Shown piece by piece: positions 10,794 to 30,518 of a stretch of 64,000 nt of DNA; positions within the stretch are counted from its first letter, which is position 1, and each line of letters starts with the position of its first letter. Position numbers and translations under genes: made by a program. The notes beneath the pieces are model-generated. The model was not told where the DNA came from. It saw only the letters and a program-made list of their open reading frames with translations, and searched no databases. This DNA comes from a virus: the IMG/VR virus record IMGVR_UViG_3300034064_001073, positions 1 through 64,000 of that record. The stretch is one strand, 5' to 3'.

Positions 10794-10837
10794 TCTTCGT
10801 TTCCTTTCAAAGCTTTTTAAGCTTTAATTTAAAAGTA

Positions 10838-12214
10838 TTATTTTGTTATATAGTCAATAACTGTATTCGCAGTATTAACAGTTGCGTTCCAAGCTGCTTG
10901 GGTTCGACTAGCTTTTGCTGGTATAGCAACAGTTCCTGGCTGTGTAACTGGAATAGGTGGATATTCGGTAACGTCACGTCCATCTTGAGGCGACATAAGC
11001 GCAGTACTATCTATTTCAACCTTTGGCTTTGGCGCAACACAAGAGTTAATAACAACAGCAGGCGCAGCCGGGGGAGGTTTCGCAACTACATATCCGTCAG
11101 GAAGAGGAATACCAAGTCCTTCCTGAAATCGATCTCTGCTTTCATCTGCGCTTTGAGGCAAATTAAACTCAGACCAGTTTTTTACTGGCCGACAATCTGG
11201 GGGCTTGCCATCTGGCCTAGTAAATACTCTCTTAACATGCTCACTTAGACCCCTGCTCCAATAACCACTTGTCCTACCGGCTGTGTCACCCGCGCCACTA
11301 AAATCGAAATGCATAGAATCCAGAACAACGTTTGTCGCAAAGTCGGGTGAAAAAGGCTTACCATCAAGTTCATACACGGCTTGGAATCGCCCCGTAAACT
11401 CGGGCTTATCGTCCTTACCCCACTCAACCAGGGTTATACCATGATAACCTGGTCCGTCTGTCTTCTTTAGACTTTCCAATGTCGGTTGCTCACCTACTCT
11501 GTAAGTCTTAGCGTTTTCATTGCCAAAGTACCCGCCCCATCTTACACCTATATTCGTATCTGTATCTGGAGGGTCAACTTGTACTGTATCTTTGATTGAG
11601 GTACCTTCTTCATTTCTTGGATCTGTATTCTCTACTCCGTTCTCATCAAATTCTCTTCTATGACCAAGTTTTGATCTTTCTCTGCCTCCCTCAATGTATC
11701 GCAAATCACTCCAGTCTACCGTCTCACCATTATCATCTTTGACTATATTTGTTATGATGCACTTAGCTACACACTGGGCAAATAATTCATAAGCTCTAAA
11801 AGTTCTTACATTTCTTATATTGCCAAGGACTTTACCTTCATTCGTAATAAGATGTATATCTATAGCTCTGCCTCCGCCATGATTTGAGGTCTTCCCAGCT
11901 ACTGATCTAAGAATAGACCCGCTCGCGTCTTTTCCTTGTACCCCCGTCAGCTCTCCAGATAAAGTACTGTCACCTATACGCTCGCCAGTTGAAACTTGCC
12001 ATCCATTTGGTAAATACTTACTAGCTTCTCTTATCATTAATTCTAATCTTGGATCTGCATCAACCTTGCATCCGAATGCTTTTGGAGCAGCCCAGCCACC
12101 AGGAGGCTGTAAAAGAAAGTCTTTTCTTAGATACCGAGTTCTAGCTTCTCCGCCACGAACATACCTATCCGTACCAAAAAGATATTTTGCTTCTCTTTCG
12201 CTTTGCTTGCTCAT
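10838..12214 (-). CDS. M15-family (L-Ala-D-Glu type) peptidoglycan peptidase, paralogue of the hub N-terminus
   Basis: 458 aa. SNHGGGRAIDI, VRWGGYF, DSMHFDF. Shares long blocks with the hub N-terminus (VDADPRL.LMI..ASKYLPNGW.V, YELFAQ, P..NWS.F.LPQ.A.ES...F...LGIP). Confidence 0.75.
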   Translation of the reverse strand: MSKQSEREAKYLFGTDRYVRGGEARTRYLRKDFLLQPPGGWAAPKAFGCKVDADPRLELMIREASKYLPNGWQVSTGERIGDSTLSGELTGVQGKDASGSILRSVAGKTSNHGGGRAIDIHLITNEGKVLGNIRNVRTFRAYELFAQCVAKCIITNIVKDDNGETVDWSDLRYIEGGRERSKLGHRREFDENGVENTDPRNEEGTSIKDTVQVDPPDTDTNIGVRWGGYFGNENAKTYRVGEQPTLESLKKTDGPGYHGITLVEWGKDDKPEFTGRFQAVYELDGKPFSPDFATNVVLDSMHFDFSGAGDTAGRTSGYWSRGLSEHVKRVFTRPDGKPPDCRPVKNWSEFNLPQSADESRDRFQEGLGIPLPDGYVVAKPPPAAPAVVINSCVAPKPKVEIDSTALMSPQDGRDVTEYPPIPVTQPGTVAIPAKASRTQAAWNATVNTANTVIDYITK

Positions 12215-12244
12215 AACAACACCTTATAAGATTAGTGTATTCTT
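12215..12244 (-). promoter_or_regulatory. candidate phage promoter/leader motif AAGAATAYACT-N4-TTATA-N10-ATG (copy 1)
   Basis: Minus strand reads AAGAATACACT AATC TTATA AGGTGTTGTT ATG. Same motif and spacing at 27969-27998. Confidence 0.45.
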
Positions 12245-12292
12245 CACATTATTTTATCTTTAATTAGAAAATTAGATTAATCTTTCTTTTTA

Positions 12293-14722
12293 CTAGGTCT
12301 TTTTTTTAGGGATAACCTCTATTGGAATTGCAGCTCCATTTGAGTTAATATATCTACCAAGAAGTTGCCCGTCGCCAATTTGACCTTCTTTTCCTGGATT
12401 CTCTGTATTGTAAGCTTCTCTTTGGGCTTTCCACGCCTCTTTTTCTGAGCTTAAATCAGGATTTAATATTTCTATAATTTGATAATTTGCTCCTGAGTAT
12501 CGACTCTTTACTGCGCCGGCAATCTTTGTGTAAGGCGGAGCTGCTGCCTTGAATGCTTCAGGCTGGTAATAGAAAGGTTCTTTACTTGTAGAAGGAGTAG
12601 TTCCCCATCCTTGCATTCCAAAATAAATTGAGAAAAAATTAAAACTATCTTCTTGTGCCCTTTGTACAAATCCATTTCCTAGTTTAGTTTCCAACACCCC
12701 TTCAATATTTTGTGACTCCATCTGATCTTCTACAGGAGCATCTACAAATCGCTCATAAGTTACACCACCTAAGGCATCTTGGTATGATTTATAAACTTTA
12801 CCGAATATAGCTTCTTGTATTTTTGGTTTAATATTAGAGTAATAATTACTAATTCTAGCAGAATAGTTCGCAAACAAATACGCAGCATTTGGCGTATTAA
12901 CAGACCCAACCGGAACCATATACAAAGGTGAATCTTTCAAATTAGTTTTTGTAGGCTCTACAAAAGAAGTATACGCCTTTTTGTAATATCCTTGAATATC
13001 CTCTTTCATTTTGTCAACAAATGTTTTCCATATACAAGCAAAGAAAAAGCGCTCGCCATCTGGCTCTTCACTTAAAATCCATCCCTTTCTCCATTCGTCA
13101 CTATTCTCATGAACTTTATTTTGTACTTCTTTTTTTGAATATCTTTTTGTATATAAAAATGGATGTGCGTCTAAGTTGCAGTTTTTAAACCAATCTCCAT
13201 ATCCTGTTCCTAGGTGTATCTCAGGTCTTATTTCCTGATCATCCCACGAGGCAACCGCTGGATCAGTCCACTGATATTTATCAGTTATTTTTGCTGCTTG
13301 TAAGAAAGCATCAGTCTTGATAACCCACTTAGAACCAGACTGCCCAGCAAAATGAGTTACATAAAAAAGATAATAAGGAAAAGTAATAGGATTTTCTGCT
13401 AATCTTTCATTGTCTGTTCGTAATGTCTTATCTATTAATCCAATTCTTGCACGCTCAGCTGCTTCAGATTCTTCTCTTTTTTGAACACTTTTAAGATTTT
13501 CGGCTCTTGCTTCTTCTGCGCTTGTCTTTCCAACCGCTACTGTAACTGGGAAAATTCCTTTTACTCCCCCCAGCTTGTAAGCGTCTTGTATAAGTGAAAA
13601 TCGACTTAACATCTCTCCGCCATAAGCAATAATAAAAGCTATTTCATCTGGATAATATCTACAATCAATAAAAAATCTTTTATCAGTGCGTTTCGTTCCT
13701 ATCGCTTCTTTTGTGACTGGATCTATTATTGCTCTATTTTTAGCTCTTGGAAGGAAATAGAAAGGAAAAAAACTGTACTCTGGATTTATTTTTAAAATTT
13801 CTTTTCCATCTATGTTTACTTTAATAGTCAAAGGAAATTTATGAGAATTTGGAAGTTCCTTTACTAACGCTGCAAGGTCTGAGTCATTCTCATAAATTTC
13901 TCTTTGTCGGTTATATTCAGTTATATATTCTGGCTTAAGTAATTCTTTATATTTTTTAGCTGCAACCACTACAGCTTCATACGTAATATTAGTATATTGT
14001 AATTGTCCACTGGCACTACTTGCTGTATTAAAACTAAAGAATTTATTTCCGGACTCACGAGTTGCCATAGCTGCCATTAAAACTGGGAAACAAAAATTAG
14101 GAATAAAACTATACTCAGCCGACATTTTTGTTAAGTCTAGGTTTAGATGAGTCATATTAAAAGTTAGGATTCCGCTTGAACTTGAGACTTGTAAGTCGGG
14201 GGCACTTCCTGCTGCTCCTGCGGGAGGAACATAACCAGGAGCACCTGGAACAGGAGGTCCACCTGGCCTAGGTGGTGTCGCTGCTCTAGGACCTGGTACT
14301 ACTGGTGTAGTAGGCGGAGTCGTTGGATTTGGGCGCGCTCGACGTCGTGCTTCTTCGTCACGCATTACTTGATCTCTTTGTTGCATTGCTTTTCGTGCCT
14401 GATCAACGTCTGCGTCATGTGCCTCCTCTTCTTCTAATGTCCAACCGCGGTAAGCTGCTTGTCCTCTATTAACCAACCTTGTACCTTGGTCAATTGGCCA
14501 CGAAACAATATCATTGCCTACGCTGGCTAGACGTGAATACCAAGGCTGAGGAGGAATTGCTGGCAAATTAGGATTAAGAGGTGGTAATCCAGGAGTAGGA
14601 GTAGCCAAAGATGTAGCACCAGGAGGCGCTAAAAATGCTGCGTTGCCAGCAGGTGCTGGTTGAGGACTAGCGGCAGCAGGTCGTCTTGTAGGTGTGCTTG
14701 GACTTCTTTGTCTATCTCCCAT
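12293..14722 (-). CDS. virion protein with Pro-rich N-terminus and lytic transglycosylase (SLT/lysozyme-like) domain
   Basis: 809 aa. MAAMATRESGNKFFSFNTASSASGQLQY (catalytic E about 223, A.G..Q motif) and a later YLFYVTHFAGQSG segment. Located in the baseplate cluster. Confidence 0.6.
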   Translation of the reverse strand: MGDRQRSPSTPTRRPAAASPQPAPAGNAAFLAPPGATSLATPTPGLPPLNPNLPAIPPQPWYSRLASVGNDIVSWPIDQGTRLVNRGQAAYRGWTLEEEEAHDADVDQARKAMQQRDQVMRDEEARRRARPNPTTPPTTPVVPGPRAATPPRPGGPPVPGAPGYVPPAGAAGSAPDLQVSSSSGILTFNMTHLNLDLTKMSAEYSFIPNFCFPVLMAAMATRESGNKFFSFNTASSASGQLQYTNITYEAVVVAAKKYKELLKPEYITEYNRQREIYENDSDLAALVKELPNSHKFPLTIKVNIDGKEILKINPEYSFFPFYFLPRAKNRAIIDPVTKEAIGTKRTDKRFFIDCRYYPDEIAFIIAYGGEMLSRFSLIQDAYKLGGVKGIFPVTVAVGKTSAEEARAENLKSVQKREESEAAERARIGLIDKTLRTDNERLAENPITFPYYLFYVTHFAGQSGSKWVIKTDAFLQAAKITDKYQWTDPAVASWDDQEIRPEIHLGTGYGDWFKNCNLDAHPFLYTKRYSKKEVQNKVHENSDEWRKGWILSEEPDGERFFFACIWKTFVDKMKEDIQGYYKKAYTSFVEPTKTNLKDSPLYMVPVGSVNTPNAAYLFANYSARISNYYSNIKPKIQEAIFGKVYKSYQDALGGVTYERFVDAPVEDQMESQNIEGVLETKLGNGFVQRAQEDSFNFFSIYFGMQGWGTTPSTSKEPFYYQPEAFKAAAPPYTKIAGAVKSRYSGANYQIIEILNPDLSSEKEAWKAQREAYNTENPGKEGQIGDGQLLGRYINSNGAAIPIEVIPKKKT

Positions 14723-14746
14723 AGCTTTTCCTTTTATAATTAATAA

Positions 14747-16090
14747 TTAAGGGCCAATACCTGCAGCACCAGATGCTGTCATACTCGCAGCCATTGTTGT
14801 TTCTAGCTCTGCGAACGCGGCTATCTCTTCTTCAGTATATCCTTCTTTGATTAACTGCATATCACCTTGCATTCTAATCTTAAATAAGCGTGCACGATCA
14901 AGCGCTAACTTTCTTTTGTAATAGGTTCTTATAGTATCTGCGACTACCGGATCAATTTGAATAGATTTAAATTCTTTCCACTTTAATACAATAGCATCAC
15001 CAAGGTCATGATTCTGTGAATTATATGGACTAATTTTTGTAAAGTCATATCTATTAAGAGTTACATCTTGTTCATTATTAACAATTTTTTGTGCCCATCT
15101 TGCATGTAGCCAGTCGATATATTGCTTATACAGAGTACTCTCATATGGAAATTGTGTAATATCACTTGTTACCATAAAGTCCCTATCAAGACTATTTATA
15201 GAGTCTACAGTTTGATATGCAGGATTAACAACTGAGCAATCACTTTCTGTCGTTGTTGCTGTTGCTCTATCTCTTAATTTGGGATTCACATACCAACTTT
15301 TTGAACCAAAATAATACGTTCTTGACTCAGGTGTATCTTCTGACTCATCAAGTCGAGTTGGATATTTATGCCAGTCAGGAAGTTTACGTAGTATTCCTTC
15401 GTAGTTCATATTCACATCAAAGAAAGAAGACCCATTCTTGGCATCCCAATTCTTTTTGAAAAGCCACTTATCACTATAAGGCGTATAGCCAAGAGGACTC
15501 ATAGTCAAGGACGCAACAAGCGTACCAGGTTCTCCTGGGCTAGTTGACATTGCTAAGTTATGCATACAAAAAACCATATTGTGAGTAAGTGGAATTTTAA
15601 GCTTTGCTCTTAGATATGCATTCTCAACAACAGAAAAAGGAATATGTTTAAACTGAATAATTAAGTCTAATATTCCTCCACGTTTTTGCGTATTATTATT
15701 TTCATAATCATTTGTGTATTTTGCTGGACCTACCTCGCTAGTTCTATCATCAATATTAACAATTGAATTTTTACTTACAATATTCAAGTTAATTGTAAAG
15801 ATTTCACTTGCAATCCCAACAGGTATCTTAGAAGCTGAATTACTTCTTAAGCTTTGAAATTCCGCATAAGAATTTTCTTCCTGCGAACTTATTCTTTCAG
15901 GTGGAACTTCAAAATACAGATCATTAATCCAAAAGGCATGATTGAACTTATCACCATACTCTTGGTATCCAGTATTTAGCAAAGCATCGCTAACTGTTTC
16001 TCCATCAACATTTTCATCTAAGTAATTCTTAGCAGCATAAGAGTCTATTCTAGCTCTTCCACCACCAGCGTTATATCTATTATCAGCCAT
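14747..16090 (-). CDS. tail/baseplate structural protein (possible tube-initiator or hub N-terminal-like)
   Basis: 447 aa. TAATG overlap with the upstream giant gene. FWINDLYFEVPPERIS resembles tube-initiator starts. Mostly positional. Confidence 0.4.
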   Translation of the reverse strand: MADNRYNAGGGRARIDSYAAKNYLDENVDGETVSDALLNTGYQEYGDKFNHAFWINDLYFEVPPERISSQEENSYAEFQSLRSNSASKIPVGIASEIFTINLNIVSKNSIVNIDDRTSEVGPAKYTNDYENNNTQKRGGILDLIIQFKHIPFSVVENAYLRAKLKIPLTHNMVFCMHNLAMSTSPGEPGTLVASLTMSPLGYTPYSDKWLFKKNWDAKNGSSFFDVNMNYEGILRKLPDWHKYPTRLDESEDTPESRTYYFGSKSWYVNPKLRDRATATTTESDCSVVNPAYQTVDSINSLDRDFMVTSDITQFPYESTLYKQYIDWLHARWAQKIVNNEQDVTLNRYDFTKISPYNSQNHDLGDAIVLKWKEFKSIQIDPVVADTIRTYYKRKLALDRARLFKIRMQGDMQLIKEGYTEEEIAAFAELETTMAASMTASGAAGIGP

Positions 16091-19000
16091 TATAGTTGCC
16101 TCTCCAAATCCGAAGGGATATTGTAATTGTGATTAATTTTTACGCCAACTTGTGCACCTGGAATTATTCCCTGAATAGATCTTGCATATTCAACAGGATT
16201 AGTTTTATCAACAATCATTCCTCTGTTAGATATTCTTACAGCCGCGTTATTCAAATAAGATTTAGAAGCAATAGAGTTAGGAGAACTCATAGCGCCAGAC
16301 ATCTCAGCAGAGCCGGCACTTCTTGCCATTTCTTCATCTTGGGTTTGATTATAATTCGAGTAGTTATCACTAAGAAGATTTCCACTATTGATAAGTTTCA
16401 TATCTGCATTAGTTGGGGTCATCATCATTCTACCAGGTGGCGGTGGTGGGACATCTACTAATGGTTCGTCGTCGTATCCTGAGTTAAACAAAGCATAGGC
16501 TCCTGCTGTTACAGCTGCACCAACCATACCTGCTCTCGCAAATTTATTAGCAAAAAGAGACTTAGCAGATTCCTTGTTTTCTTTAAGCTCTTTCTGGGCT
16601 AACTGTTTTGCTACTGAGTTTTTACCTCTGCCAGCTGCTTTTGCTTTTTCTGTTGCATTTAAACGTGCGAGATCTTCTGCTCCAAAGCTAGAAGCATTAG
16701 CGCCAGTTAATGCGTCTTTAAACTCAGTGACTTTTTTCTTAAACTCTTGACGCTTTGCTTCTGGTAATGCAGACATAGCAAAATCAATAAGCATATCGCT
16801 TCTGCCAGAGTCAAGTTGATGTAAAGCAAACTCAGAGTCTGCACTACCTGATAGGTAAGAATTCAATATATCTCCTGCTGTTGTCTTTTCTGATTTCTTA
16901 CCACCGCCAGCTAGAATAGAAGCTCTTGCTAATGAGAACGAACCTAACGTGGCATCGCTGGTTTCATCAATCTTGTCTGCATCTCTAAATCCAAAATCTT
17001 TCAAAAGACTCTTATACTCAGCTAAACCTTTTGTTAAATCTTCATTTTCCAACGCAGAATGGAAACGACTGTATAGAAGTTTTCTAGGTGACATAGCCAT
17101 ATGCTTGAAACCAACAGCTTTCTGCTCTAGAGCTTGCAAGAAGTTTGACATCTCTTCTGACGAGCCTCGATCAATGCCACCTGTGCTTCTCATAACATAG
17201 TTTATTTTATGTAGTGCTCTAGCTGTATTTGAAATAATACCGACATCTTCTTGTCCAACTTGTCTCATGAAAGCGGTTTGTTTTCTAGTTAACTTGACGC
17301 TACCACCAGTAAGTAACTTCTGTAGACTTTCATCAATTGCTTTTTCGTTTGCCATACTTCTCATATCATAGTTCTTTTGTCTTTGATATTGAGTTGAAAG
17401 ATTTGGCGCGCTAATTAAATCTGAGATTCCCTCCCAGTAATCTTTAATGTTCTTACCACTTCTATTTCTATTACCTGCACCTACAGCCATAACAGCAGCT
17501 GTGTCTCCGTCAAAGTCAGATGAAGTTTTACCAGATATAAAAGCACCAATTCTTTTCCAGATTTCCTGACCATCTATGTCGACTTTCTCACCTAGAATAT
17601 TAGCTGTATATCCTCCAGTCTTGTCTCTTCGAGGATCGTAATACCCAGCCATCGTAGAAACTGACTCTACGCTAATCTGAGGATTTTGCCAACCCATAAC
17701 AGCGTATTTCTTTCCTTCTTCTAAGACTCCTCGTTTCATTTTCTTTAAATAGTTTTTCTCACTAGCAGAAGCACCTCTCATCATTTCGTCAAAGTGGCCT
17801 TCAATAACTCTTTTACTCATACCTATTCCATAGCCTTGAGTTTCCTTTGCTACTTTATCATCTAAGTTTGCAATGACCATGCCATACTCAGCACCACGTA
17901 GTCTTCCTTCAAAGGGGGCGTTAAAGGCTTCCATGCCTTTTCTCGCCCCAACATCCATCAACTTTCTACGTAGGTCTAGAAAGGCCTTCTTATCCACGTC
18001 TGCAATGTTTGTTTCAACTGTATTTAATACTTCAGTTATCATTTCTTGCAAGTCTGTGTCTTCTACATTTCTACCAGCTCTGCTATCTCTTAGAGATAAC
18101 TTCTTAACATCATCAGCAGATGGTATGTAAATATGGCCGCCTTCATGCTTTAAGAATCCGCCTTTAGTTTTAATCCTGTTAAAAGCTGTTCTTCGTGCAG
18201 GTTCAGCTTCTTGTTTTGTAAAATCCAAAACGCGGTCTTGTTTTACTATTTCTCTATTTGAGTTCTTTGCAAAGCTAGCTAACTGAGATACATAACTAGG
18301 ATCAAAAGTTTGTATTCTTTGTTGTATTGTTTCCCATACTTTTTTCATATGTCCATGTCTTTCGTTTTGCGAATCCATCAATTGATAAAAGATATGGTCA
18401 ATAAAACGACGTTCCATTCTTGCATCATTACCAGGTGTTATTGATGAAGAATCTGCAACTCCATGCAAAGATAAATTGAATACCATTTTTGAGTTTTTAA
18501 TCCCAGACTGAACAGAGGATACGAAATCTTTATCTATACCTAAGTCAACAAGAGCTTGAACTCCTTCATTCGAATTTAACATTGTTTCAAATGTACTTCC
18601 CTGCTCAAAGCCAAATACATTACCAAGTAACTGTTCACGTTCAGCCATTAGACTTGGATCTTCTATGAAAGCATCCTCTGCCCTTTTCAAGAAACCAATC
18701 AATGCGTTAGTATCTTCCATTGAGTAGCTTTCGCCCATTCCCTTTTTCATACCCGCATGAAATGCTTTATAGCCAGCTTCCATTGTAGCTGTATCCCCGC
18801 CTGCAACTGAGTACATAGCATCGCTAGTTATATCTCCTGCGTAATTTCTAATATCACGTAAACCTAGTAACGGATTACCAGAAGCGTCAAACTTGTTAAG
18901 AAGAAATCCTATTGCGGATTCTTGCTGAGTTCTAACATTTCTAATGTTGTCTCCCTTTATAAAGTTACGTCCTTCTCCAATGAAGGTTGTATGAGGCAAA

Positions 19001-22000
19001 GTTCTTGCTTCTGCGGTAGAGCCAGCAAAACTAGGATCCACTGCCGCAAAAGCCCCAGCAATTGCAGATGCATTTCTTGTTCCAAGTATTTCATTAGCTT
19101 TCCCTGTTCTAACAGAGTCTCGCATTGAGCTCCAGGCACTATGAGTTGCATCAGAATCATATCCAGGAAGTTGATCTTTGAAATCTGCAAGCTCTTCTTT
19201 TATCTGCTTCAAAGCAGCTATATGTGCATCTCTCTGTGGCTTTAGATCTGTCTGAGCAGCAACTGTTCCAAACTGTTTAACAGTCTCTTCTTCAGCTTTT
19301 TTGCCAGCAATTGCTTTATATGCAATTGTTTTTCCTTTTCCAATCATTCTATTTAATTGTCTAAGTCTATCTGCATTTGCAAGTTTCTCTTCTTCAAAAA
19401 CTTCCCTCTCTTTTAGGCGCGGCATAAGAGATTTATTTCTCTCTATCCTAGGAATACCTGGTCCCCCTAAAGACATTCCAAAAGGTGAAACTTTGGCATC
19501 ATTCTCCATTGCCATAGTCCAGCCGCCTACGCCACCTTGCTCAAGCAAAGTAAAAGGATTCTTACCAGAGAAAAAAGATTGTAGTCCTTTTCTTTGAGAA
19601 CCACTAATACCTAGTAATTCTTCCACCATAGCAGAACTACCACCAGACGCTCCTAAATATTTATTTATAGTTTTTTTAATAACTTGCTCTGAGAATGCTC
19701 CAGGCCCATTATATGATGACGTAAGACTTTTTTGTAAATTAGGTCTTTTACCTTGCATCCAACTAGGGGCGTTTGCTTGTTTACCCTTTGTCTTCATTAA
19801 GGCTGAGCGAAATGAACTTTCAGCATCACCTAGACTTCCTAGGCCTCTTCTCTCAAATTCCTCTTGAAGACCTTTAACTTTCTTTTGTTGTCTGCTAAGT
19901 CTACTTGAAATGCTATTTTTAAGCATTTCTTTGCCATCTGGAATGCCTCCAAAATAACGATACATATTAGTAAAAACATCTCTATCTTGCTCTGGTAAAG
20001 ATTTTGTACCTGCCATATACTTAATAGTATCTTGATTTCTTTCCCAGAACTTTGCTTCTTCTTCTAAGTTGAAAAGAGCTTGGACTTCTCCAATTGCTCT
20101 TGCTTGGAAATCTTCATTCTTTACTCTTGGAGGTTTTTGTTTTCTACTTTTTAATAGCTGATCTCTTTCAGCCATTAAATCAAATAATGAAACAGATCCA
20201 GTTTCTGTTCCTTTACCAAAGCTTGGTCTAGTTGGAAAAACAGCATCAAGCAATTCAGATTCTGGGACTGTATATCTTTCTCTCTGGGACCTTAAACCAG
20301 CCTCAAGATCTGCTGTGCTTTTTTTATTCTTATTGACTCTTTTTGTCATAGAAGGACCTTTAGGTCCAGTTGGGAAAATCTCAGGCAGTCCCTCTAACAA
20401 TTCCCTTTCTTGATCAAGCGGAACTCTCTCACCTAGGGATGTTTTATAATTTTCATAAGCTTTCTCAAGAGCTCCACCCCTCAAGTTCCCCATAATTTTT
20501 CGCTCTTCGCCTCTAGTAAACTTTCTTCGTTCCCCTACTATTTTTTTCTGAGCAGCAGCCGCTTTCTTTTTGTCTGTTAACTGATCCAAAGCTTTCTTTA
20601 GCGCATCAACTTCTGGAGCACGTCTTTGCACTTCTTGATCATAAAGAGTATTTCTATTAGTTTTTGCTAATTGTTTTGCATTAGTAAAGAATTCATCTTT
20701 CTGTGCTTTTTCAAAATCTTTAACTGATTGATACTCGTCATTGGTTAATTGTTCATCAAATAAAGAACTTTCAGTGCTAGTCGTAGCACCAAAGGTCTTA
20801 GTACCTTCACCAAAGCCGCTTACTCTGCCAATGCTAAATGTATAGTCATCAGTTCCGGGAATGACATCTAAAATAGCAAGTCTTCCTTGACCAGGAACAT
20901 CTACAGTAACGTCTGTAAGGTTGTCTCCTTCGACACTCTTACCAAGCCAATCACCTTGATCTAAGAAGATTGGGTTATCTTGTAACTCTTGTCTTATAGC
21001 AGCTTGTCTGGCCGCTGCATCTCCTGTTCCTGCTTTCTCTGCAATGTCAATAATGCCTTTGAATTTCTCGTTATACTGAAATGGTTGACGAGTTGCAGGT
21101 GCACCCTTGGTTGATTTATCAATTGTAAAATGTCTTCCAGGATGTACAACTTCTTCACCTTCACTCGCGCCAACTCTAATTCTTGTACCTTCAGGAACTG
21201 CCTGTGGATTTTCTTTCATAGATCTTTTAGTAGTTAGCCAACTGCCATGTACAAAACCTATCATGCCAGATTTTTCCATATCAGCAAAAGCACCTGATCC
21301 TCTAAACGCATAGAGATCACCTAACGTAGCGCGCATGTGCTTGAGTGCTCTCTGTGAGCCTCTATTCTGTACGTTATATGCGCTAATAATATGTCTACCA
21401 GGTCGACGTCCTATATCATTTGTAGAATAAAATTGACCAGTATCAGGATTAACTTCTCCTAGAGCTGCTCTTACATAGTCTGGTGTTTGGGTATTGATAA
21501 CTTGCCCACTCGGACCTCTTTGCACTGTTCTATAGTTAAAGATATCTTTCTTAGTTTGGTTAGGACTAGTGAGTGGTTCAATTACGTAACCATGCCCCTC
21601 TGCTTGTCTTTGGAACTCATCAAACTCTCCAACTCTTGAAGAATCATCTGGGCTGAATTCATCACTCAACTGAAGATCCTCATCCATAGGGTTCATAGTT
21701 CGAACAACTTTCATCTGAGCCGCTTTAAGAGACAAGGCTCTAGACGGAGTTCTTACAGGATCTATGTACTGTAGGATTTTATATTGATCATCAGCGTCAA
21801 CATCTTTGCCACCAAACAAAGACGAACTAAGACGCCTGCCACTTTGAAGACTCTTATCAATCATTCCCATGATTGCGCCGCCTTCACGCCCATACTTACC
21901 GTTCTTGTAAACATCTCTGCCAAATAAATACTCAAGCCCAGTCATAACTTCACTGGTTTTGTCTTTATTGATTTGCATCACTCTGCCAGTTGGACTGTAC

Positions 22001-23082
22001 ATAACCGAACCAGCAGCATCTCTATGGTAAATCTCAGCGCCTGTTGAAGCATCTTTATAATGTGACAGTTCTTGGATTGGCATCATAATGCTCTCAGCGT
22101 TTTCTCCGCTACCAACTCTGTACTGAGCATATCTAAATTTTTTACTAGCACTGTCCCCAATCTTCTGATCAATCTCTACAATGTTTGACCTATTGTAGGT
22201 CATATCAACGCCTCTTCTACCTACTCGCTTTTCAAAGTTTTTTATTCGTTGAGCTTCTTCTTCCGTTAGATCAGAATCTGAAAGAAATTTAACATTGGAT
22301 AGAGTGTTGTTTCCTGTTCCAAAATTAAGTAAACCTCTTGTTCCAGTTGCAGTCATTGCTCTGTTACCATGTAATCTTTTTGAGAAAACATCAGCCATAC
22401 CATCTACTCCGCCATACAAACTACTGAATGTATTAAGAAGAGGATTTAAAGCACGTCTTGCACCCTTAACATCCATGGGACCAAAGCTAGACCCCTGCAA
22501 TTTGGCAAGTAAACTTTGATAGGTTTTCTGTTTATGAGTTCCTTGAAACACTCCTGAGAATCTTTTATTTTGCATAATGTCAAGAAGCGTAAGTCTTGTA
22601 GCCTCAGCTTGTTGTCCATAGAATGAATTAGGATCTGCCGCAAAATTAAAATTGTTTACATTAAGAGGCCCATTAACAATGGGAATTCCTCCTGGAACTC
22701 CTTGGGCACCCATAGGAGTACTTGTTACCATCTGATTGGCTACAACAAGACCGCCACCCTTTAGTCTCTTTCCTTCAAACTTATTTTTTTGCTGACTCCA
22801 TAAGTACTGAAGTTGCTGAGCATTCATTGCATTTTCAATTGCAAACTGAAGACTTTTATTACTATCAGGTCGCATATTATTTGCTTTATACTGATTACTT
22901 AATGTCTCAAAGAAAGTTCCATTCTCATACTCGCCTAATGTATTTCCGATATATGAATCGGTAGTAGTGCCAGTTAGCATTTGCTTAACTGCACTAAGTG
23001 TTAAATCGCTGCCTTTTGCTTTTCCAAAAGCTAAAGCGCCTAACCCTATGCTTAGTAAGTTAAAAATCTTATCGCTAATCAT
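16090..23082 (-). CDS. giant virion protein with two-barrel (DPBB) RNA polymerase motifs; putative single-chain virion RNAP
   Basis: 2330 aa. SSDFDGDTAAV (D1856-D1860, nt 17503-17517), preceded by EGRLRGAEYGMVI..GIGMS and AVMGWQNPQIS and followed by VGIISN and LEQKAVGFKH. Beta-like LDQGDWLGKS...GEGTK at about aa 706-762. Confidence 0.7.
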   Translation of the reverse strand: MISDKIFNLLSIGLGALAFGKAKGSDLTLSAVKQMLTGTTTDSYIGNTLGEYENGTFFETLSNQYKANNMRPDSNKSLQFAIENAMNAQQLQYLWSQQKNKFEGKRLKGGGLVVANQMVTSTPMGAQGVPGGIPIVNGPLNVNNFNFAADPNSFYGQQAEATRLTLLDIMQNKRFSGVFQGTHKQKTYQSLLAKLQGSSFGPMDVKGARRALNPLLNTFSSLYGGVDGMADVFSKRLHGNRAMTATGTRGLLNFGTGNNTLSNVKFLSDSDLTEEEAQRIKNFEKRVGRRGVDMTYNRSNIVEIDQKIGDSASKKFRYAQYRVGSGENAESIMMPIQELSHYKDASTGAEIYHRDAAGSVMYSPTGRVMQINKDKTSEVMTGLEYLFGRDVYKNGKYGREGGAIMGMIDKSLQSGRRLSSSLFGGKDVDADDQYKILQYIDPVRTPSRALSLKAAQMKVVRTMNPMDEDLQLSDEFSPDDSSRVGEFDEFQRQAEGHGYVIEPLTSPNQTKKDIFNYRTVQRGPSGQVINTQTPDYVRAALGEVNPDTGQFYSTNDIGRRPGRHIISAYNVQNRGSQRALKHMRATLGDLYAFRGSGAFADMEKSGMIGFVHGSWLTTKRSMKENPQAVPEGTRIRVGASEGEEVVHPGRHFTIDKSTKGAPATRQPFQYNEKFKGIIDIAEKAGTGDAAARQAAIRQELQDNPIFLDQGDWLGKSVEGDNLTDVTVDVPGQGRLAILDVIPGTDDYTFSIGRVSGFGEGTKTFGATTSTESSLFDEQLTNDEYQSVKDFEKAQKDEFFTNAKQLAKTNRNTLYDQEVQRRAPEVDALKKALDQLTDKKKAAAAQKKIVGERRKFTRGEERKIMGNLRGGALEKAYENYKTSLGERVPLDQERELLEGLPEIFPTGPKGPSMTKRVNKNKKSTADLEAGLRSQRERYTVPESELLDAVFPTRPSFGKGTETGSVSLFDLMAERDQLLKSRKQKPPRVKNEDFQARAIGEVQALFNLEEEAKFWERNQDTIKYMAGTKSLPEQDRDVFTNMYRYFGGIPDGKEMLKNSISSRLSRQQKKVKGLQEEFERRGLGSLGDAESSFRSALMKTKGKQANAPSWMQGKRPNLQKSLTSSYNGPGAFSEQVIKKTINKYLGASGGSSAMVEELLGISGSQRKGLQSFFSGKNPFTLLEQGGVGGWTMAMENDAKVSPFGMSLGGPGIPRIERNKSLMPRLKEREVFEEEKLANADRLRQLNRMIGKGKTIAYKAIAGKKAEEETVKQFGTVAAQTDLKPQRDAHIAALKQIKEELADFKDQLPGYDSDATHSAWSSMRDSVRTGKANEILGTRNASAIAGAFAAVDPSFAGSTAEARTLPHTTFIGEGRNFIKGDNIRNVRTQQESAIGFLLNKFDASGNPLLGLRDIRNYAGDITSDAMYSVAGGDTATMEAGYKAFHAGMKKGMGESYSMEDTNALIGFLKRAEDAFIEDPSLMAEREQLLGNVFGFEQGSTFETMLNSNEGVQALVDLGIDKDFVSSVQSGIKNSKMVFNLSLHGVADSSSITPGNDARMERRFIDHIFYQLMDSQNERHGHMKKVWETIQQRIQTFDPSYVSQLASFAKNSNREIVKQDRVLDFTKQEAEPARRTAFNRIKTKGGFLKHEGGHIYIPSADDVKKLSLRDSRAGRNVEDTDLQEMITEVLNTVETNIADVDKKAFLDLRRKLMDVGARKGMEAFNAPFEGRLRGAEYGMVIANLDDKVAKETQGYGIGMSKRVIEGHFDEMMRGASASEKNYLKKMKRGVLEEGKKYAVMGWQNPQISVESVSTMAGYYDPRRDKTGGYTANILGEKVDIDGQEIWKRIGAFISGKTSSDFDGDTAAVMAVGAGNRNRSGKNIKDYWEGISDLISAPNLSTQYQRQKNYDMRSMANEKAIDESLQKLLTGGSVKLTRKQTAFMRQVGQEDVGIISNTARALHKINYVMRSTGGIDRGSSEEMSNFLQALEQKAVGFKHMAMSPRKLLYSRFHSALENEDLTKGLAEYKSLLKDFGFRDADKIDETSDATLGSFSLARASILAGGGKKSEKTTAGDILNSYLSGSADSEFALHQLDSGRSDMLIDFAMSALPEAKRQEFKKKVTEFKDALTGANASSFGAEDLARLNATEKAKAAGRGKNSVAKQLAQKELKENKESAKSLFANKFARAGMVGAAVTAGAYALFNSGYDDEPLVDVPPPPPGRMMMTPTNADMKLINSGNLLSDNYSNYNQTQDEEMARSAGSAEMSGAMSSPNSIASKSYLNNAAVRISNRGMIVDKTNPVEYARSIQGIIPGAQVGVKINHNYNIPSDLERQL

Positions 23083-23090
23083 AGTAAAAC

Positions 23091-26000
23091 TTACATAAAC
23101 GGATTAAGAGTATTGTACTCATTAAATGTTAGGTCAACAAAATCTTGGTTCCTATTAGGCCCTTGAATATTATAACTATTTACACCATACCCACTGTACA
23201 TCTTAGCAGCATTAGCCATTCCATTCAGTCCATTTCTAAAACTTAAGTTATTCAGATCTTGCATAGCTTTTTCATCTACATATGGTTTTCTAGGCATATA
23301 CGAGGCCCGGCTTGGATATATTCCAAAGTCATGATAGTCCATACCTTCAGACTGAATATATTTAAGCTTAACATCTTCTAGGTCTACTGCTGGATTAAAT
23401 CCAATCCAGTCTACAGCTGGCATTGATCTATGATTAAAGAATTGAGATACTTCTTGTAACTTTGCGCTTTCTACCATTTGAGGATCTGCTACATCAAATC
23501 CTTCTTTTTGTTTCTTTATAATAAGATCAGCTGCATAGTCCATACCATAAGTGGACATAGGCCCAGCCGTTGCTGCACGATTAATAGCCTCTAAGTCTTG
23601 GTTAAGATAAAAGCCTTCCATTAGTCTTGCCTTGTAATCTGGTAAAGCATCTATGATTTCGCCTTGGCGACCAGGATTCATCTCTCTCGCAAATCCTGCG
23701 GCAAACATAGATTCTCTTCCACCTAAAACATTTGCTAATCTATCTTCAGATACATAACCTGTTCCACCAACATAAGTATCTTGTGCTATATTCTGATATT
23801 GATTTGCTAGTTGGCCATTACCTTCCATGCTTGCCGCTTGAGACAAAGATGAATATTTAACATATTTAAGCTTGTCAAAGTACTCTTCAGTCTGTCTTTT
23901 CTCTCTTAGTCCTGGGGACTCAAAATTAAAACCAAGCCAATTATGTAACGCTGACTTTACAGCAGGAGCTATCCAGTCTGCAACTGGACTATCCCATCCT
24001 TTCATTTCGGTACCGTAAAGTTCCCTTGATTCATACTCTTCTAGAGCATCTCGAAATGGCAATAGCTTATTTACAGGAGACATACCAAACATTCCAATAT
24101 GCTCTATTGGCTGTGCAACTCTATTTGCAATATGTGTTGTAGCTTCCCATGCTCTGCCAAACATTCTTCCAATAGGATTAGTCATTGCATAGCTAGAGAT
24201 TTGAGAATCATCTCTAGCGAAGTCACCTTCTTCTCTTATATCTTGGTTAACATTAAAACCATTATTACTTACAGCGCCCCTAATAATACCTGAAGAGTCA
24301 ACTGCTTGACCAATACTAGCAGGAACATCTACTGATACTCCTTGTCCAACTTGAATCTTACTAGAGAACGCAGATTCATTTTTGCCTTTTAATTTCGCAG
24401 CTTGTTTGATTGATAAGTTGTAATCGCTAATTAAAGCATCAACATCATTAGATATGCCAGCCACACCGAATCTACCACCGTATCCTTCAAGAGTAAAGCT
24501 CATAGTCGAAGCATCAACTGATGAAACTCTTCCACTTATGTTGTCGTAAGTGCTTGGCTTGAATTGATACGTGTCGTATTCCATGTCATTCTTTTTGTTT
24601 TCTATCATTTGTTTATGGCGATAGAAGAATTTTCTTTCTTCCTGCGTCATATCTCCGCCAGCCTTCATTAGTTCGGCTTGCCTTAAGTATCCTTTGTACT
24701 GAGGAGATTGAGGAGCAACATCTCCAAGAATATTAAGTTTGTGAAGCAAAGGGTAATCTTCTGGATTGACACCTTTCAATTCTTTATGCAAAGCTACATA
24801 TCCCTTGCCTGGCATTCTATACTCACCTTCGCCATATCTGGTGCTAGTATATTGGTTGCCAAACTTAAAACTATCTGGCATCCAACTTGGCATAGCATTT
24901 TGAATAGGATTGTATTGCTTTAAATCATCTTTGTGGAGGAATCGTCTAATAGGCTCTGATACAAATGGAACACCAAGGAATGAACCACCACCCTGAAGAT
25001 CATGGAATCTACTTGCCATATCCATATTACGAGAGAAGGACTCTAGCTCTTGTCTTTGATCAGCAAATCCAGGAGTGCCAGTTAAGTAATTCTTAGCAGT
25101 CTTCGCATAGAAACCAACTAGTCCTCCAAGTGAAGTTGTTTGCTCCCAGAAGTCTCCAAGTACTCTTCCTGGAGAATACGGCGAATAGGGTGCAGGCAAA
25201 CCAAGTCCACCAATCTGTAAGTCTGGAATCTCATCAAGTCCAGTAGATCTTTCTAGTAGCTTTACATTTCCTTCTTCATCACTTCGAGCCCACTCACCTA
25301 CATGCATAAGTCTTGGCTTTTTGATAAGATCTGCAAAAGGTTGAATTAGCGGATATATAAATGGAACTTGATCAAACGCAGCACCTGTTATTGGCGCTGG
25401 CCTAGTCCAGTAGTTTTCTCTCTCAAGCTTGTATGTGAAATTCTTTAATACCATTTCCGTCAATTGACCGTGACCGCCAGATGCCCCAGCCTGAGTTGCA
25501 CCTGAACTTAAACGAGCTGTCAATGTAGGGCGGTAATAAAGAATATCAGTACCCTCATAACCTGTTTGACCCATTTCCCATTTTTGACCACGCTTAACAG
25601 CTTCTAGTCTTTTGCCTTGATTAAGCTCTCTAAGCTCAGCTGGGCGCTCTAGGGTACCCATACTGCCAGTTGCTGTGTACCATGCTGCTGCTGCTACAGT
25701 AGAAGCATACAGGATACTTCTCATTCTAGGCGCTACTCTTATTGCTTCTCTTAATCTACCAAATGCACCTTTCTCACTTGCAAAAATTCTCTCTTTTGCT
25801 TCAGCGTAAGTATGCTCAGTAATGTGTTCTGCTATTTCATCAAAGTTTGATTCATCTGCAACTTTGCCAATTGGGTTATTAAGTAATCCATATTCATTTT
25901 TTCTTTCAAGAGAGGCAATATAAGAATTTACATTACGCTCTACAACATCAGCCTGCTTAGATGATAGACCTCCTGTGTCGCCTCTTGCTATTGTAATAGC

Positions 26001-27968
26001 AGTTTCAAGTCTAGATCTTGCTGCGACTTTTTCTCTATCTGAAAGACCAGAGTAAGCATCCGCATGTTGTTTATTTAGAATTAGTACACGTGCAGATTGC
26101 TCTCTGACTTCTTGCGCCATTTCAGCAAGAGTAATATTATTTCTATCTTTAAACTTTGCTCTTAGGAATTTTGCCCGCTCATCTTGCTCAACTAAAACGT
26201 CACTCGATAGACCAGGAATCTTTAAAGTACTAGAAAGTCTTACTCCTCTGGTGGCTGTGACATACCCCGCACCAGCTAGGAAGCCAATACCCAAAGATGA
26301 AACTACACCAGTAGAGCCAGGCATCATTTCATTAACTGCACGTCTCCATGAGTTAACGCCAAGCGCTTCTCCTGTATAGCTTCTAATTTCATTTCCTCTT
26401 GCTGCAAGGTTTGCAAAGCCAGGTATTGGACCTGCTGCAAACGGACCAACTCCAGCCATACCAAGAACACCAAGAGCTGCTCCAATTCCCGCTCCAACAA
26501 GAGTACGTTTTTGAGAATTGCTTGTTATCTCCATGCCCATTTTTTTAAAGACATCAGAAAAGCCAAGATCATCTGATATCATTTCAGGTATTTTCTTTCC
26601 AAGGTAAGCACCTAGTACAGTTAATCCGACTGTCTGTAAACCTCCAGAAATGCCCCCTGTAATAGGGTCGGCATTCATCATGTTCCATCCTAGCTGATTG
26701 ACCGTAGCCATGGTTAATGCTACCTTTGCGGCCATGCCAGCATACCTCATAAGCATTGCAGCACCATGGCCATGGTCCAATCTTGGAGCTAGATTGTTTC
26801 TAGCTAAGAAGTTATAAATTTTCTTTTTTGGAGATGGAGATATATACTCAAGAAAATCTCCAGCTTGTCCATATAATTCAGAAAACAATCTTGAAGTTCT
26901 CTGCAAGGCCATAGAAGCATATGCCTCAGTTAATAACGCAGTTGTTGCATACTTCTTTAAGTTCATTCTTTTGCCAGGAGAAAGCATACCGAGACTTCCT
27001 GTAGCTATGCCCTTCCTTGTTAAAGTTTGCATTCTACCCATCATACGGGTTAACTCTGGATCCATATTCTTTTCTGCCAGTAATATAAATCCTTCTCTTC
27101 CTCCGATGCCTTCTGCAAAGGTTGCACCGGTCTTCCTATCTTTTAAACCTAGGCTAGGTTCTATAATTCCAAGCAAAGCTTCAGTGAACAAACCTTTATC
27201 AACTAGACGTGCTGTCTTCTTGTTAAGCTTCTTCTTAGGCCCAGCCATATTGGTGACTTCTCCGTACATGTTAAGTGTACCAGAGAAAACGTCTCCATTC
27301 TCAAAGATTAGGTAATCTAGAAGATTTAATTTTCTTCGACTAATACCTAATTGCTTTGAATATAAATCCAATGTTCTAGATCTATTAGTTGCTCCTAAGG
27401 AATTCATACTAATGTTTAAAACAGTTTTACCTTGTCTTTTTGTCGTATAAGACAAGACATCGCTCATGTAAGTAGCTCTAGCAAATAACTTAACAACATT
27501 ATCAAATATTGGTAAATTCAATCCACTTTGTTCTACTTTCTTAATTCCGGCATACCAAAAACTTTGAGGATCATCACTAGATCTAATGTTCATTAATTCT
27601 TGAGTTGCACGAAAAGTAACAGCCCTTAAAGTCTTCATTGCTTCTTTGCCAGTCTTTAAATTAAAGACATCGCTTACTTTATTAACATGGCTAAAACTTC
27701 CAGACAATTGCCACTTCTGGAACTTTGTACTCTTTGAGAGTTCACCTGCTCCTCGAATAGCACTTGGACCCATATAAAAAACAAGACCACCTGCAGCCGT
27801 TTTCATTGCAAGATTCAATGCTTGATCAGCTGCAGTAACTTCTTCTCCTGCTGCACCAGAACTCTCAGCCCATGTTTGCTTATCCTCGGAATACTGAGAT
27901 CTCTCAACCGACTGGGTAAGATCATGGTATTCTGCAAGTTGTTCTGCAATTGCATTAGGAAGTGGCAT
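23091..27968 (-). CDS. large tape-measure-position virion protein with several hydrophobic/glycine-zipper segments
   Basis: 1625 aa, directly after the tail chaperones. Several TM-like segments (e.g. LVGAGIGAALGVLGMAGVGPFAAG). Possible degenerate SNase-like OB fold near the C-terminus. Confidence 0.55.
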   Translation of the reverse strand: MPLPNAIAEQLAEYHDLTQSVERSQYSEDKQTWAESSGAAGEEVTAADQALNLAMKTAAGGLVFYMGPSAIRGAGELSKSTKFQKWQLSGSFSHVNKVSDVFNLKTGKEAMKTLRAVTFRATQELMNIRSSDDPQSFWYAGIKKVEQSGLNLPIFDNVVKLFARATYMSDVLSYTTKRQGKTVLNISMNSLGATNRSRTLDLYSKQLGISRRKLNLLDYLIFENGDVFSGTLNMYGEVTNMAGPKKKLNKKTARLVDKGLFTEALLGIIEPSLGLKDRKTGATFAEGIGGREGFILLAEKNMDPELTRMMGRMQTLTRKGIATGSLGMLSPGKRMNLKKYATTALLTEAYASMALQRTSRLFSELYGQAGDFLEYISPSPKKKIYNFLARNNLAPRLDHGHGAAMLMRYAGMAAKVALTMATVNQLGWNMMNADPITGGISGGLQTVGLTVLGAYLGKKIPEMISDDLGFSDVFKKMGMEITSNSQKRTLVGAGIGAALGVLGMAGVGPFAAGPIPGFANLAARGNEIRSYTGEALGVNSWRRAVNEMMPGSTGVVSSLGIGFLAGAGYVTATRGVRLSSTLKIPGLSSDVLVEQDERAKFLRAKFKDRNNITLAEMAQEVREQSARVLILNKQHADAYSGLSDREKVAARSRLETAITIARGDTGGLSSKQADVVERNVNSYIASLERKNEYGLLNNPIGKVADESNFDEIAEHITEHTYAEAKERIFASEKGAFGRLREAIRVAPRMRSILYASTVAAAAWYTATGSMGTLERPAELRELNQGKRLEAVKRGQKWEMGQTGYEGTDILYYRPTLTARLSSGATQAGASGGHGQLTEMVLKNFTYKLERENYWTRPAPITGAAFDQVPFIYPLIQPFADLIKKPRLMHVGEWARSDEEGNVKLLERSTGLDEIPDLQIGGLGLPAPYSPYSPGRVLGDFWEQTTSLGGLVGFYAKTAKNYLTGTPGFADQRQELESFSRNMDMASRFHDLQGGGSFLGVPFVSEPIRRFLHKDDLKQYNPIQNAMPSWMPDSFKFGNQYTSTRYGEGEYRMPGKGYVALHKELKGVNPEDYPLLHKLNILGDVAPQSPQYKGYLRQAELMKAGGDMTQEERKFFYRHKQMIENKKNDMEYDTYQFKPSTYDNISGRVSSVDASTMSFTLEGYGGRFGVAGISNDVDALISDYNLSIKQAAKLKGKNESAFSSKIQVGQGVSVDVPASIGQAVDSSGIIRGAVSNNGFNVNQDIREEGDFARDDSQISSYAMTNPIGRMFGRAWEATTHIANRVAQPIEHIGMFGMSPVNKLLPFRDALEEYESRELYGTEMKGWDSPVADWIAPAVKSALHNWLGFNFESPGLREKRQTEEYFDKLKYVKYSSLSQAASMEGNGQLANQYQNIAQDTYVGGTGYVSEDRLANVLGGRESMFAAGFAREMNPGRQGEIIDALPDYKARLMEGFYLNQDLEAINRAATAGPMSTYGMDYAADLIIKKQKEGFDVADPQMVESAKLQEVSQFFNHRSMPAVDWIGFNPAVDLEDVKLKYIQSEGMDYHDFGIYPSRASYMPRKPYVDEKAMQDLNNLSFRNGLNGMANAAKMYSGYGVNSYNIQGPNRNQDFVDLTFNEYNTLNPFM

Positions 27969-27998
27969 AGTAACTTACTATAAAAAGAGTATATTCTT
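27969..27998 (-). promoter_or_regulatory. candidate phage promoter/leader motif AAGAATAYACT-N4-TTATA-N10-ATG (copy 2)
   Basis: Minus strand reads AAGAATATACT CTTT TTATA GTAAGTTACT ATG. Contains the -10-like hexamer TATACT. Confidence 0.45.
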
Positions 27999-28019
27999 AT
28001 TTTCTCTTAAACACCTATC

Positions 28020-30504: not shown

Positions 30505-30518
30505 TAAATCTCCAGAGT

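Follow-up and report, generated by a model that had tools for sequence, protein, structure and literature searches.

The window analyzed here, a 64,000-nucleotide stretch of viral DNA (positions 1 to 64,000 of IMG/VR record IMGVR_UViG_3300034064_001073), holds the structural block of a highly divergent phage, with terminase, portal, capsid and tail sheath genes and three paralogues matching phrog_9206. Among its tail genes lies a giant open reading frame (ORF), 16090-23082 including the stop codon, which encodes a tail-module protein of 2330 amino acids (aa) with an RNA-polymerase-like core; this ORF and all other window features given coordinates below are on the minus strand. The same DNA was present in several independent lake-water metagenomes, and the phage, which is uncultured, is known only from these; none of the sequencing runs listed for this DNA was of RNA. 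The ORF was compared with that of a related strain from an independent lake-water run (95-97% alike). No indels were found, 31 of the 40 listed differences were synonymous and 30 of the 40 fell at third codon positions, indicating that the ORF is a real gene under purifying selection.

The sequence-only reading of this DNA had taken the protein for a virion-packaged, single-chain two-barrel RNA polymerase (RNAP), quoting ten peptides, and all ten were found at the residues given for them. On the catalytic side, EGRLRGAEYGMVI occupies residues 1725-1737, GIGMS 1752-1756 and AVMGWQNPQIS 1794-1804, ahead of the putative metal-binding triad DFDGD at 1856-1860 (17503-17517); EDVGIISN (1945-1952) and LEQKAVGFKH (1985-1994) come after it. 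On the N-terminal side are GASEGEEVV (638-646), IFLDQGDWLGKS (705-716), GQGRLAILDV (731-740) and GFGEGTKTFG (756-765). The only other DxDxD motif in the protein is DVDAD at residue 427, and 0.002 copies of DFDGD would be expected by chance from the protein's own composition.

A family alignment comprised 15 sequences with 25-88% identity to the query. From the N terminus of the protein, a hydrophobic segment is followed by an N-module of ~700 aa, a linker, a C-module of ~810 aa, a basic stretch, a hydrophobic helix with a polyproline motif and a very conserved tail of ~110 aa. Homologues were 1746-2422 aa long. The family is small, with 11 clusters at 50% identity among 1.84 billion representatives; ten of these clusters (E ≤ 1e-10) were of 1746-2332 aa, the eleventh was a weak partial match to an 855-aa protein, and no stand-alone short form of the core was found among the same representatives. 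DFDGD is conserved in homologues: its three Asp (D1856, D1858 and D1860) do not vary among the 15 members, and neither do the nearby K1852 and S1854. Q1799 and P1801, then G1943, Q1944, G1948 and S1951, and finally Q1987, F1992, K1993 and H1994 are also invariant in all 15, and D739 and K762 are invariant in the N-module. The fourth position of the motif is not always Gly, as a distant homologue (L024, 9938-15799, plus strand) reads DFDHD.

AlphaFold2 was run on aa 1340-2130 with the family alignment (9 rows), and the mean predicted local distance difference test score (pLDDT) was 70.5, with values of 70-93 in the barrel. The model contains a beta-rich block at model residues 388-527 (aa 1727-1866), and DFDGD occupies the loop that leads into the last strand of this block. 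This block is predicted to be a beta-prime-type double-psi beta-barrel (DPBB) of aa ~1727-1868 (17479-17904), on the basis of the model and of DPBB superposition. Minimal DPBB domains superposed on model residues 392-529 with root-mean-square deviations (rmsd) of 2.1-2.4 over 83-84 of their 86-87 residues (7dbo_B, 83 of 86 residues, rmsd 2.1 Å, Z 6.5; 7dvc_A, 84 of 87 residues). The barrel that the sequence-only reading had placed around aa 1740-1870 was thus modeled as a complete double-psi barrel at aa ~1731-1868, and neither of the computational outcomes that this reading had named as refuting it (no barrel there, or a motif that is not conserved) was observed. A conserved helical region with a clamp/connector-like part precedes it (aa 1370-1726; 17905-18975), as judged from the model and conservation, in which N1379, Q1386, Q1387, D1544, E1557, R1559, G1641, G1642 and P1654 are invariant.

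Structural neighbors of this model were two-barrel RNA polymerases. In the Foldseek search against the PDB, QDE-1 was the top match (E 2.3e-3), followed by beta-prime, Rpb1, AR9 and phiKZ polymerase chains. VIA-align, which is independent of Foldseek, was applied to 48,161 chains and gave QDE-1 (Z 8.9), maize RDR2 (Z 8.8) and gp62 of P74-26, a P23-45-type non-virion RNAP (Z 8.2); archaeal A' and the largest subunits of Pol I/II/III, vaccinia and African swine fever virus (ASFV) came next, and P23-45 gp96 scored Z 6.0. Upon realignment of the Foldseek top 1000, 50 of the 50 listed rows were two-barrel polymerases or DPBB domains, and E. coli beta-prime 24-1355 was aligned with model residues 270-751 over 342 residues (Z 8.3). 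Alignments with beta-prime begin at model residue 270, which is aa 1609. Among predicted viral structures in BFVD, three giant viral proteins matched (E 1e-7 to 1e-4), as did pieces of crAss-like RNAPs, including phi14:2 gp66 (E 1e-3 to 9e-3). These results support the prediction of a beta-prime-type barrel at DFDGD, and the C-module likely belongs to the two-barrel superfamily on the grounds of fold and catalytic triad. Because the methods agree, the alignments are long and the invariance is family-wide, a chance motif is unlikely.

Two further motifs follow the barrel. The first, GQ-x-[DE]-[VI]-G-xx-S, lies on a long helix (aa 1933-1966, model helix 594-627; 17185-17286), and the second, [ED]-Q-x-[AS]-V-x-F-K-H, lies at aa 1981-1994 (17101-17142). 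The alignments with QDE-1, gp62 and beta-prime cover the long helices at model residues 594-627 and 633-655, as coverage of regions and not as residue-level equivalence. The GQ..G..S helix and the Q..FKH motif resemble a bridge helix and a trigger loop's N-terminal arm, respectively, and the Q-to-H spacing of 7 in the latter is what we take to be that of beta-prime and Rpb1 trigger loops.

The loop Q1799-N-P1801 (17680-17688) corresponds to the RxP "Pro-gate". The sequence-only reading had remarked that the Arg of RxP appears as Gln (WQNP), and the alignment confirmed this in 15 of 15 members; since every member carries Gln, QxP is a family trait and not the decay of one copy. The counterpart reads FRNP in P23-45 gp96, RSP in a Microcystis phage protein (MaMV-DC ORF82L) and RAP in beta-prime. 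Eight residues are common to all two-barrel polymerases, namely the three Asp, a fourth Asp, two basic residues and the Arg and Pro of RxP, of which the fourth Asp and the two basic residues belong to the other barrel (PMC2919709). The RxP Arg of QDE-1 hydrogen-bonds the 2'-OH of nucleoside triphosphates (NTPs) (PMC9508822), and no growth defect was reported for yeast rpb1-R446A (PMC2919709). The filter of a published viral RNAP survey, [RK]xPx{20,100}DxDxD, would miss this family because its RxP Arg is Gln.

The N-module (aa ~281-775; 20758-22242) was delimited by conservation and is the candidate beta-like half. AlphaFold2 on aa 520-800 gave an overall pLDDT of 57.7 and was confident only for aa 644-756 (20815-21153; pLDDT 72-89), with low values elsewhere in the module. 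This part was modeled as a strand, two helices and four strands, forming a flap-like sandwich-barrel domain. Its matches were weak (best Z 4.6; Foldseek E ≥ 0.08) yet uniform: they were to the flap/wall of second-largest RNAP subunits from bacteria, archaea, eukaryotes, plastids and ASFV, and to lipoyl-type barrel-sandwich domains. They included E. coli beta 830-1058 (Z 4.2), T. thermophilus beta 702-831 (Z 4.2) and yeast Rpb2 842-981. The sequence-only reading had placed a beta-type double-psi barrel at aa 700-765, and here it was not upheld, as the region was modeled as the flap-like domain instead; the Lys of its "GD.L.GK" (K715), proposed as a barrel lysine, is not conserved in the family, whereas K762 is invariant. 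K762 lies in a candidate "basic loop" (aa 757-772; 20767-20814), a low-confidence stretch of the model, and falls within one residue of Rpb2 K979 and E. coli beta K1065 at the ends of alignments with Z 3.3-4.2. K979/K1065 is the first of the two active-site lysines. Six residues beyond K762, 10 of 15 members carry a further Lys, and Thr stands there in the subclade of the phage studied here. These results suggest that the N-module region is, in a weak sense, beta-like. A flap with the sandwich-barrel hybrid motif (SBHM) is reported to be a typical insertion in the beta-type barrel of cellular-type enzymes, one that the QDE-1/YonO clade lacks (PMC7824862). The C-terminal model shows helices and a small clamp-like sheet, and no second barrel, over the 350 residues that precede the catalytic barrel. 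D1544, E1557 and R1559 cluster in this part, ~300 residues before DFDGD, where QDE-1-type spacing puts the residues of the other barrel, and they are an alternative candidate set for those residues.

Considered together, these features are best explained, in our judgment, by a giant multidomain single-chain beta::beta-prime-like RNAP that is built into the virion, is ejected and transcribes the first phage genes, a reading that we regard as reasonably probable. The C-terminal third (aa ~1610-2130) would be a highly divergent catalytic module of the beta-prime type in the two-barrel nucleotide-polymerase superfamily, made up of the clamp/connector-like piece, the DFDGD barrel, the bridge-helix-like helix and the trigger-loop-like motif. 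The conserved N-module would probably supply the beta-like half, with the flap-like sandwich barrel and then K762. Incorporation into the virion, in a tail or tail-proximal position, is most likely because the gene lies in the late structural block and its product has hydrophobic helices at both ends, and because a polymerase made together with late structural proteins would be useful mainly if it were packaged for the next infection. The protein would then be expelled at infection to transcribe the first phage genes, so that, probably, the phage brings in a transcription enzyme of its own together with its DNA. We infer that the protein has a second barrel, is catalytically active, makes RNA rather than DNA, and is packaged and ejected, perhaps through the tail lumen as the sequence-only reading had suggested.

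The host RNAP would serve the later genes in this scheme. In a 176-kb relative rated complete (G001), two converging strand blocks separate replication genes from all structural genes, including the homologue. The replication block carries a DnaE-type polymerase, a primase-helicase and a sigma70-family gene, and in the genome as a whole DFDGD occurs once and no further RNAP was detectable. The sigma70-family gene suggests that host RNAP is redirected for part of the program, and the phage's own sigma factor could thus redirect it toward the later genes. Takeover by the host RNAP later in infection occurs in P23-45, N4 and phi14:2. An exact 10-mer search of the intergenic DNA of the same relative found no recurrent promoter-like motif. 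The sigma70-family protein itself is encoded at G001:C1:73196-73405 on the plus strand (L019) and matches PF04542 (E 2e-21).

Several results weigh against this interpretation. The structural matches scored in a middling range (Z 8-9.4; best Foldseek E in the PDB 2e-3), and the fold is taken from one AlphaFold2 model built from the 9-row alignment, in which the pLDDT of the catalytic loop is <50; AlphaFold may also be biased by the DFDGD signature. The RxP Arg, one of the eight universal residues, is Gln in every member. Neither AlphaFold2 model (aa 520-800 or aa 1340-2130) contains a second DPBB, the N-domain matches reach no more than Z 4.6, the K762 stretch is of low confidence, the candidate second Lys is Thr in this subclade, and the fourth Asp and the Lys pair have no firm match. 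By sequence, none of the methods used tied the family to a polymerase. Pfam and PHROGs gave no match for the protein or for any of the 15 family members. Searches of PDB sequences (phmmer with the protein, hmmsearch with the profile) returned coiled-coil noise only, and tblastn against 50,697 phage records found nothing even at E 10. With hhalign, the family showed nothing significant against P23-45 gp96 1-1200, MaMV-DC ORF82L, E. coli beta or beta-prime, and the alignment with gp96 was restricted to 17 columns around DFDGD (probability 0.7%).

Other searches gave results in the same vein. The Pfam models RNA_pol_Rpb1_2, RNA_pol_Rpb2_6 and the T7-like RNA_pol had no match above the curated cutoff in the protein, the 15 members or the genomes G000 and G001. 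The searches with PF00940 and PF05183 were uninformative, as control genomes gave no signal either. No relative was found in the genome-contig collection, and nothing was found in viral contigs scanned with the single proteins P0006 and P0012. In the ESM Atlas, the nearest named cluster was a viral RNA-dependent RNA polymerase family at 0.85, which is a lead only.

The gene order bears on the first alternative, that this protein itself serves as the tape measure of the tail and bears a fused polymerase, like P23-45 gp96, with the insert and the hydrophobic ends setting tail length, forming a membrane channel and carrying the polymerase along. The tail sheath gene (32158-35199; phrog_16991, E 9e-44) and three tandem paralogues of 212, 258 and 293 aa (29623-32139) lead the block (29623-35199 as a whole). 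The paralogues match phrog_9206, labeled "major head protein" in PHROGs; from their position, they look like tail-tube proteins. They are followed in order by ORFs of 171, 353, 1625, 2330, 447, 809, 458 and 2666 aa, then by small ORFs and a baseplate wedge gene. The 2330-aa gene does lie between sheath or tube-like and baseplate genes, and further points in favor of a tape measure are the hydrophobic helix at either end of the product, the long insert, which is charged and variable, and a published precedent (PMC10770324). However, six ORFs share the "tape-measure slot" in which the sequence-only reading had put the gene, and the phrog_20474 ORFs downstream fit the role better. The four downstream ORFs of 447, 809, 458 and 2666 aa occupy 2793-16090, and the first and last of them match phrog_20474 (giant lysin), the 447-aa ORF at profile positions 121-271 and the 2666-aa ORF at 1277-1460.

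Gene context was read for two distant homologues (L023 and L024). In L024, whose homologue has 29% identity, the order is the same, with three paralogues and ORFs of 172, 348 and 1616 aa, the 1953-aa homologue, and ORFs of 2461 and 778 aa; the last two (15799-25655) hold the same two phrog_20474 parts, split differently. Conservation of this order at 29% identity makes the polymerase-like gene a stable member of the tail module. The adjoining phrog_20474 matches, in both phages, are the more usual tape-measure/lysin signature, and that role more likely belongs to the downstream neighbors than to the 2330-aa protein. Moreover, the insert differs by up to ~600 aa between members, the conserved parts are globular-looking modules, and the hhalign likeness to gp96 is confined to the 17 columns around DFDGD. 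The 2330-aa protein is therefore probably not the tape measure itself, and we consider this alternative unlikely.

That the protein derives from a polymerase and is now a catalytically dead structural or ejection protein, keeping the barrel only as a scaffold, is in our view improbable. Such a loss would fit the replacement of the ribose-contacting Arg by Gln in all members, the second barrel and Lys pair that could not be demonstrated, and the DFDHD of one relative. However, invariance of the three Asp, K1852, S1854, QxP and Q..FKH at 25% identity is unexpected for a dead scaffold. In addition, activity was reported for phi14:2 gp66, which has DFDID, meaning that a residue other than Gly is tolerated at the fourth position, and the yeast R446A mutant argues in the same direction (PMC2919709).

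Still less credit is due to an active two-barrel polymerase with another role, either unpackaged or making DNA, primers or RNA from an RNA template. Against this role stand the gene's position inside a late structural operon, its apparent translational coupling to both neighbors and its conserved synteny, as well as the DnaE-type polymerase and the primase-helicase already present in the complete relative. No PolD chain was among the top structural matches, which is weak evidence. What favors another role is that the superfamily includes RNA-dependent enzymes, QDE-1 and RDR2 being among the top matches here, and PolD DNA polymerases (PMC10770324), and that the Arg with which QDE-1 bonds the 2'-OH of NTPs (PMC9508822) is Gln in this family. 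A chance motif in a non-polymerase protein, with AlphaFold steered by the DFDGD signature, is very improbable: the lack of sequence-profile support of any kind, the shallow alignment and the moderate model confidence speak for it, but the motif is invariant family-wide, the structural alignments span 280-340 residues on both sides of the motif, well beyond the loop, the separate N-module model points independently to the partner subunit beta/Rpb2, and the FRNP...DFDGDT local context is common with a proven enzyme.

For a virion-packaged single-chain polymerase, the closest concept is P23-45 gp96, a two-barrel virion RNAP fused to the tape measure and also found in P74-26, G20c and TSP4 (PMC10770324; PDB 8H2M/8H2N), which was likewise recognized from a DFDGD, the giant tail protein showing no further sequence similarity (PMC10770324). 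Both proteins are giant tail-module proteins hiding a single-chain two-barrel polymerase with DFDGD (predicted in the present case), both lack sequence similarity to known RNAPs beyond the motif, and P23-45 otherwise depends on host RNAP, as the present phage probably does. They also share the local context of an aromatic residue, [R/Q]-N-P and DFDGD-T, WQNP here standing for FRNP in gp96. The structural match was lower for gp96 itself (Z 6.0) than for the gp62/gp64 paralogue family (Z 8.2-9.4). The two differ in several respects. P23-45 is a long-tailed siphovirus and the phage studied here is contractile-tailed; in gp96 the polymerase is N-terminal in a tape measure of 5002 aa that also has a metallopeptidase domain, whereas here it lies in the C-terminal third of 2330 aa, has no peptidase and adjoins separate lysin-type giant ORFs. 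The Arg of RxP is kept in gp96, and no homology to it was detectable by hhalign.

The other precedent is phi14:2 gp66, the virion RNAP of a crAss-like phage (PDB 6VR4; bioRxiv 10.1101/2020.03.07.982082). It has ~2200 aa and is made as a virion protein, as is presumed here, and its recognizable parts are limited to the two barrels, the connector, the bridge helix and the trigger loop, in which the present protein would resemble it; its DFDID has a non-Gly fourth position, like the DFDHD of one relative here. In contrast, phi14:2 is a podovirus, its motif reads DFDID rather than DFDGD, and its barrels are joined by a connector of ~140 residues, whereas K762 lies ~600 to 1100 residues before DFDGD here.

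QDE-1, RDR2 and YonO-type enzymes are single-chain and two-barrel, and QDE-1 and RDR2 are among the best solved matches (Z 8.6-9.3 over 318-343 residues). The QDE-1/YonO clade is reported without the flap (PMC7824862), in contrast to the flap-like domain predicted for the present protein; QDE-1 has R962-x-P964, with Gln in place of the Arg here, and its family PF05183 was unmatched, though that search was uninformative. As in the cellular enzymes, the beta-like part appears to come first and the beta-prime-like part second, with K762 perhaps, on weak grounds, at the place of K1065/K979. Fused and split forms of the cellular enzymes are known (killer-plasmid Rpb2::Rpb1, phiKZ/AR9), of which the phiKZ-type enzymes are multisubunit; the present protein is a single chain in which most cellular domains are missing, the Arg is replaced by Gln and no Pfam Rpb1/Rpb2 signal is present.

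MaMV-DC ORF82L, a 3560-aa "hypothetical protein" of a cultured cyanophage that infects Microcystis, was matched in BFVD (E 1e-4, probability 1.00). It is encoded at 17652-28334 on the minus strand (L009), carries RSP followed by DFDGDT at aa ~2537 and may be an unannotated two-barrel polymerase, a candidate for which no functional study was found in a literature search. Like the phage studied here, MaMV-DC is large (~170 kb) and has a tail sheath gene. Its ORF82L lies on the opposite strand, upstream of the head genes and outside the tail operon, keeps the Arg and was not significant in hhalign. In Acinetobacter phage ME3, two DxDGD sites are in small ORFs (295 and 333 aa), and none was located in its BFVD-matching giant protein. 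The family described here is set apart by its occurrence in contractile-tailed freshwater phages of ~175 kb, the order and spacing of its domains, the QxP loop, a possible flap-bearing half and a role that is probably not that of a tape measure.

Hidden virion two-barrel RNAPs in giant proteins are documented in crAss-like podoviruses and in one Thermus siphovirus lineage (PMC10770324; bioRxiv 10.1101/2020.03.07.982082), and delivery of a phage's own polymerase has been shown experimentally for few other phage groups only. If the present interpretation is correct, this strategy extends to contractile-tailed lake phages of ~175 kb, and it would explain one of the unannotated giant genes that are common in large uncultured phages. 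The family is invisible to Pfam, PHROGs and profile comparisons, and it escapes the published motif filter as well. It offers a natural test of how dispensable the "universal" RxP Arg is, and of whether a folded polymerase can ride in and traverse a contractile tail. A bolder proposal, which we hold to be improbable, is that the protein represents an undescribed single-chain polymerase lineage that is loaded in the tail, is fired ahead of the DNA and has its sugar or substrate selectivity altered by the Arg-to-Gln change; if so, the altered selectivity could mean tolerance of deoxynucleoside triphosphates or a primer- or DNA-synthesizing role beyond that of an early-gene RNAP.

The remaining parts of the protein lie outside the polymerase-like core. 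The variable charged insert (aa 781-1340; 19063-20742) has a net charge of +22 and the lowest conservation in the protein. The interval of aa 772-1370 measures 448-688 aa in five members (P0001-P0005) and 74-219 aa in the other ten (P0006-P0015). The long charged helical insert noted in the sequence-only reading thus exists here but, being short in 10 of 15 members, is subclade-specific and not part of the core; because the linker is short in these ten, the insert is a late, lineage-specific addition. The hydrophobic ends that it had also noted were both recovered and carry the two highest Kyte-Doolittle windows of the protein, the top one at aa 1-20 (23023-23082) and the second in the C-terminal helix. 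This helix is followed by the nearly invariant motif GYDD-x-PL-x-D-x-PPPPP (together aa 2179-2218; 16429-16548) and by the tail (aa 2219-2330; 16093-16428), which is the best-conserved part (column identity 0.66-0.83). The last ~150 residues (16093-16548) form the most conserved stretch of the protein; no family match was found for them, and they may be an anchoring, targeting or membrane-insertion signal.

The gene is closely packed with its neighbors. The stop codon of the 1625-aa ORF is followed after 8 nucleotides by the ATG of the 2330-aa gene, and the 447-aa ORF overlaps the stop of the latter as TAATG. Translational coupling within the operon, as the sequence-only reading had proposed, is plausible from this spacing, but the gene directly upstream is the 1625-aa ORF and not the chaperones that it had named. 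The 1625-aa ORF (23091-27968) is a conserved neighbor with a glycine-zipper-like hydrophobic segment at aa 489-508 and no family in Pfam, PHROGs or the ESM Atlas; its product may be a partner or a co-ejected protein. It was also considered as a separate beta-like subunit and rejected, as GDK-like and DxDxD motifs are both missing from it and no family could be assigned. Further downstream, the 458-aa ORF (10838-12214) has 40% identity over 228 aa to the N terminus of the 2666-aa ORF. Elsewhere in the window (52565-58661), two adjacent giant ORFs, of 1078 and 948 aa, are 61% identical over a common C-terminal region of ~390 aa, and their N-terminal parts differ.

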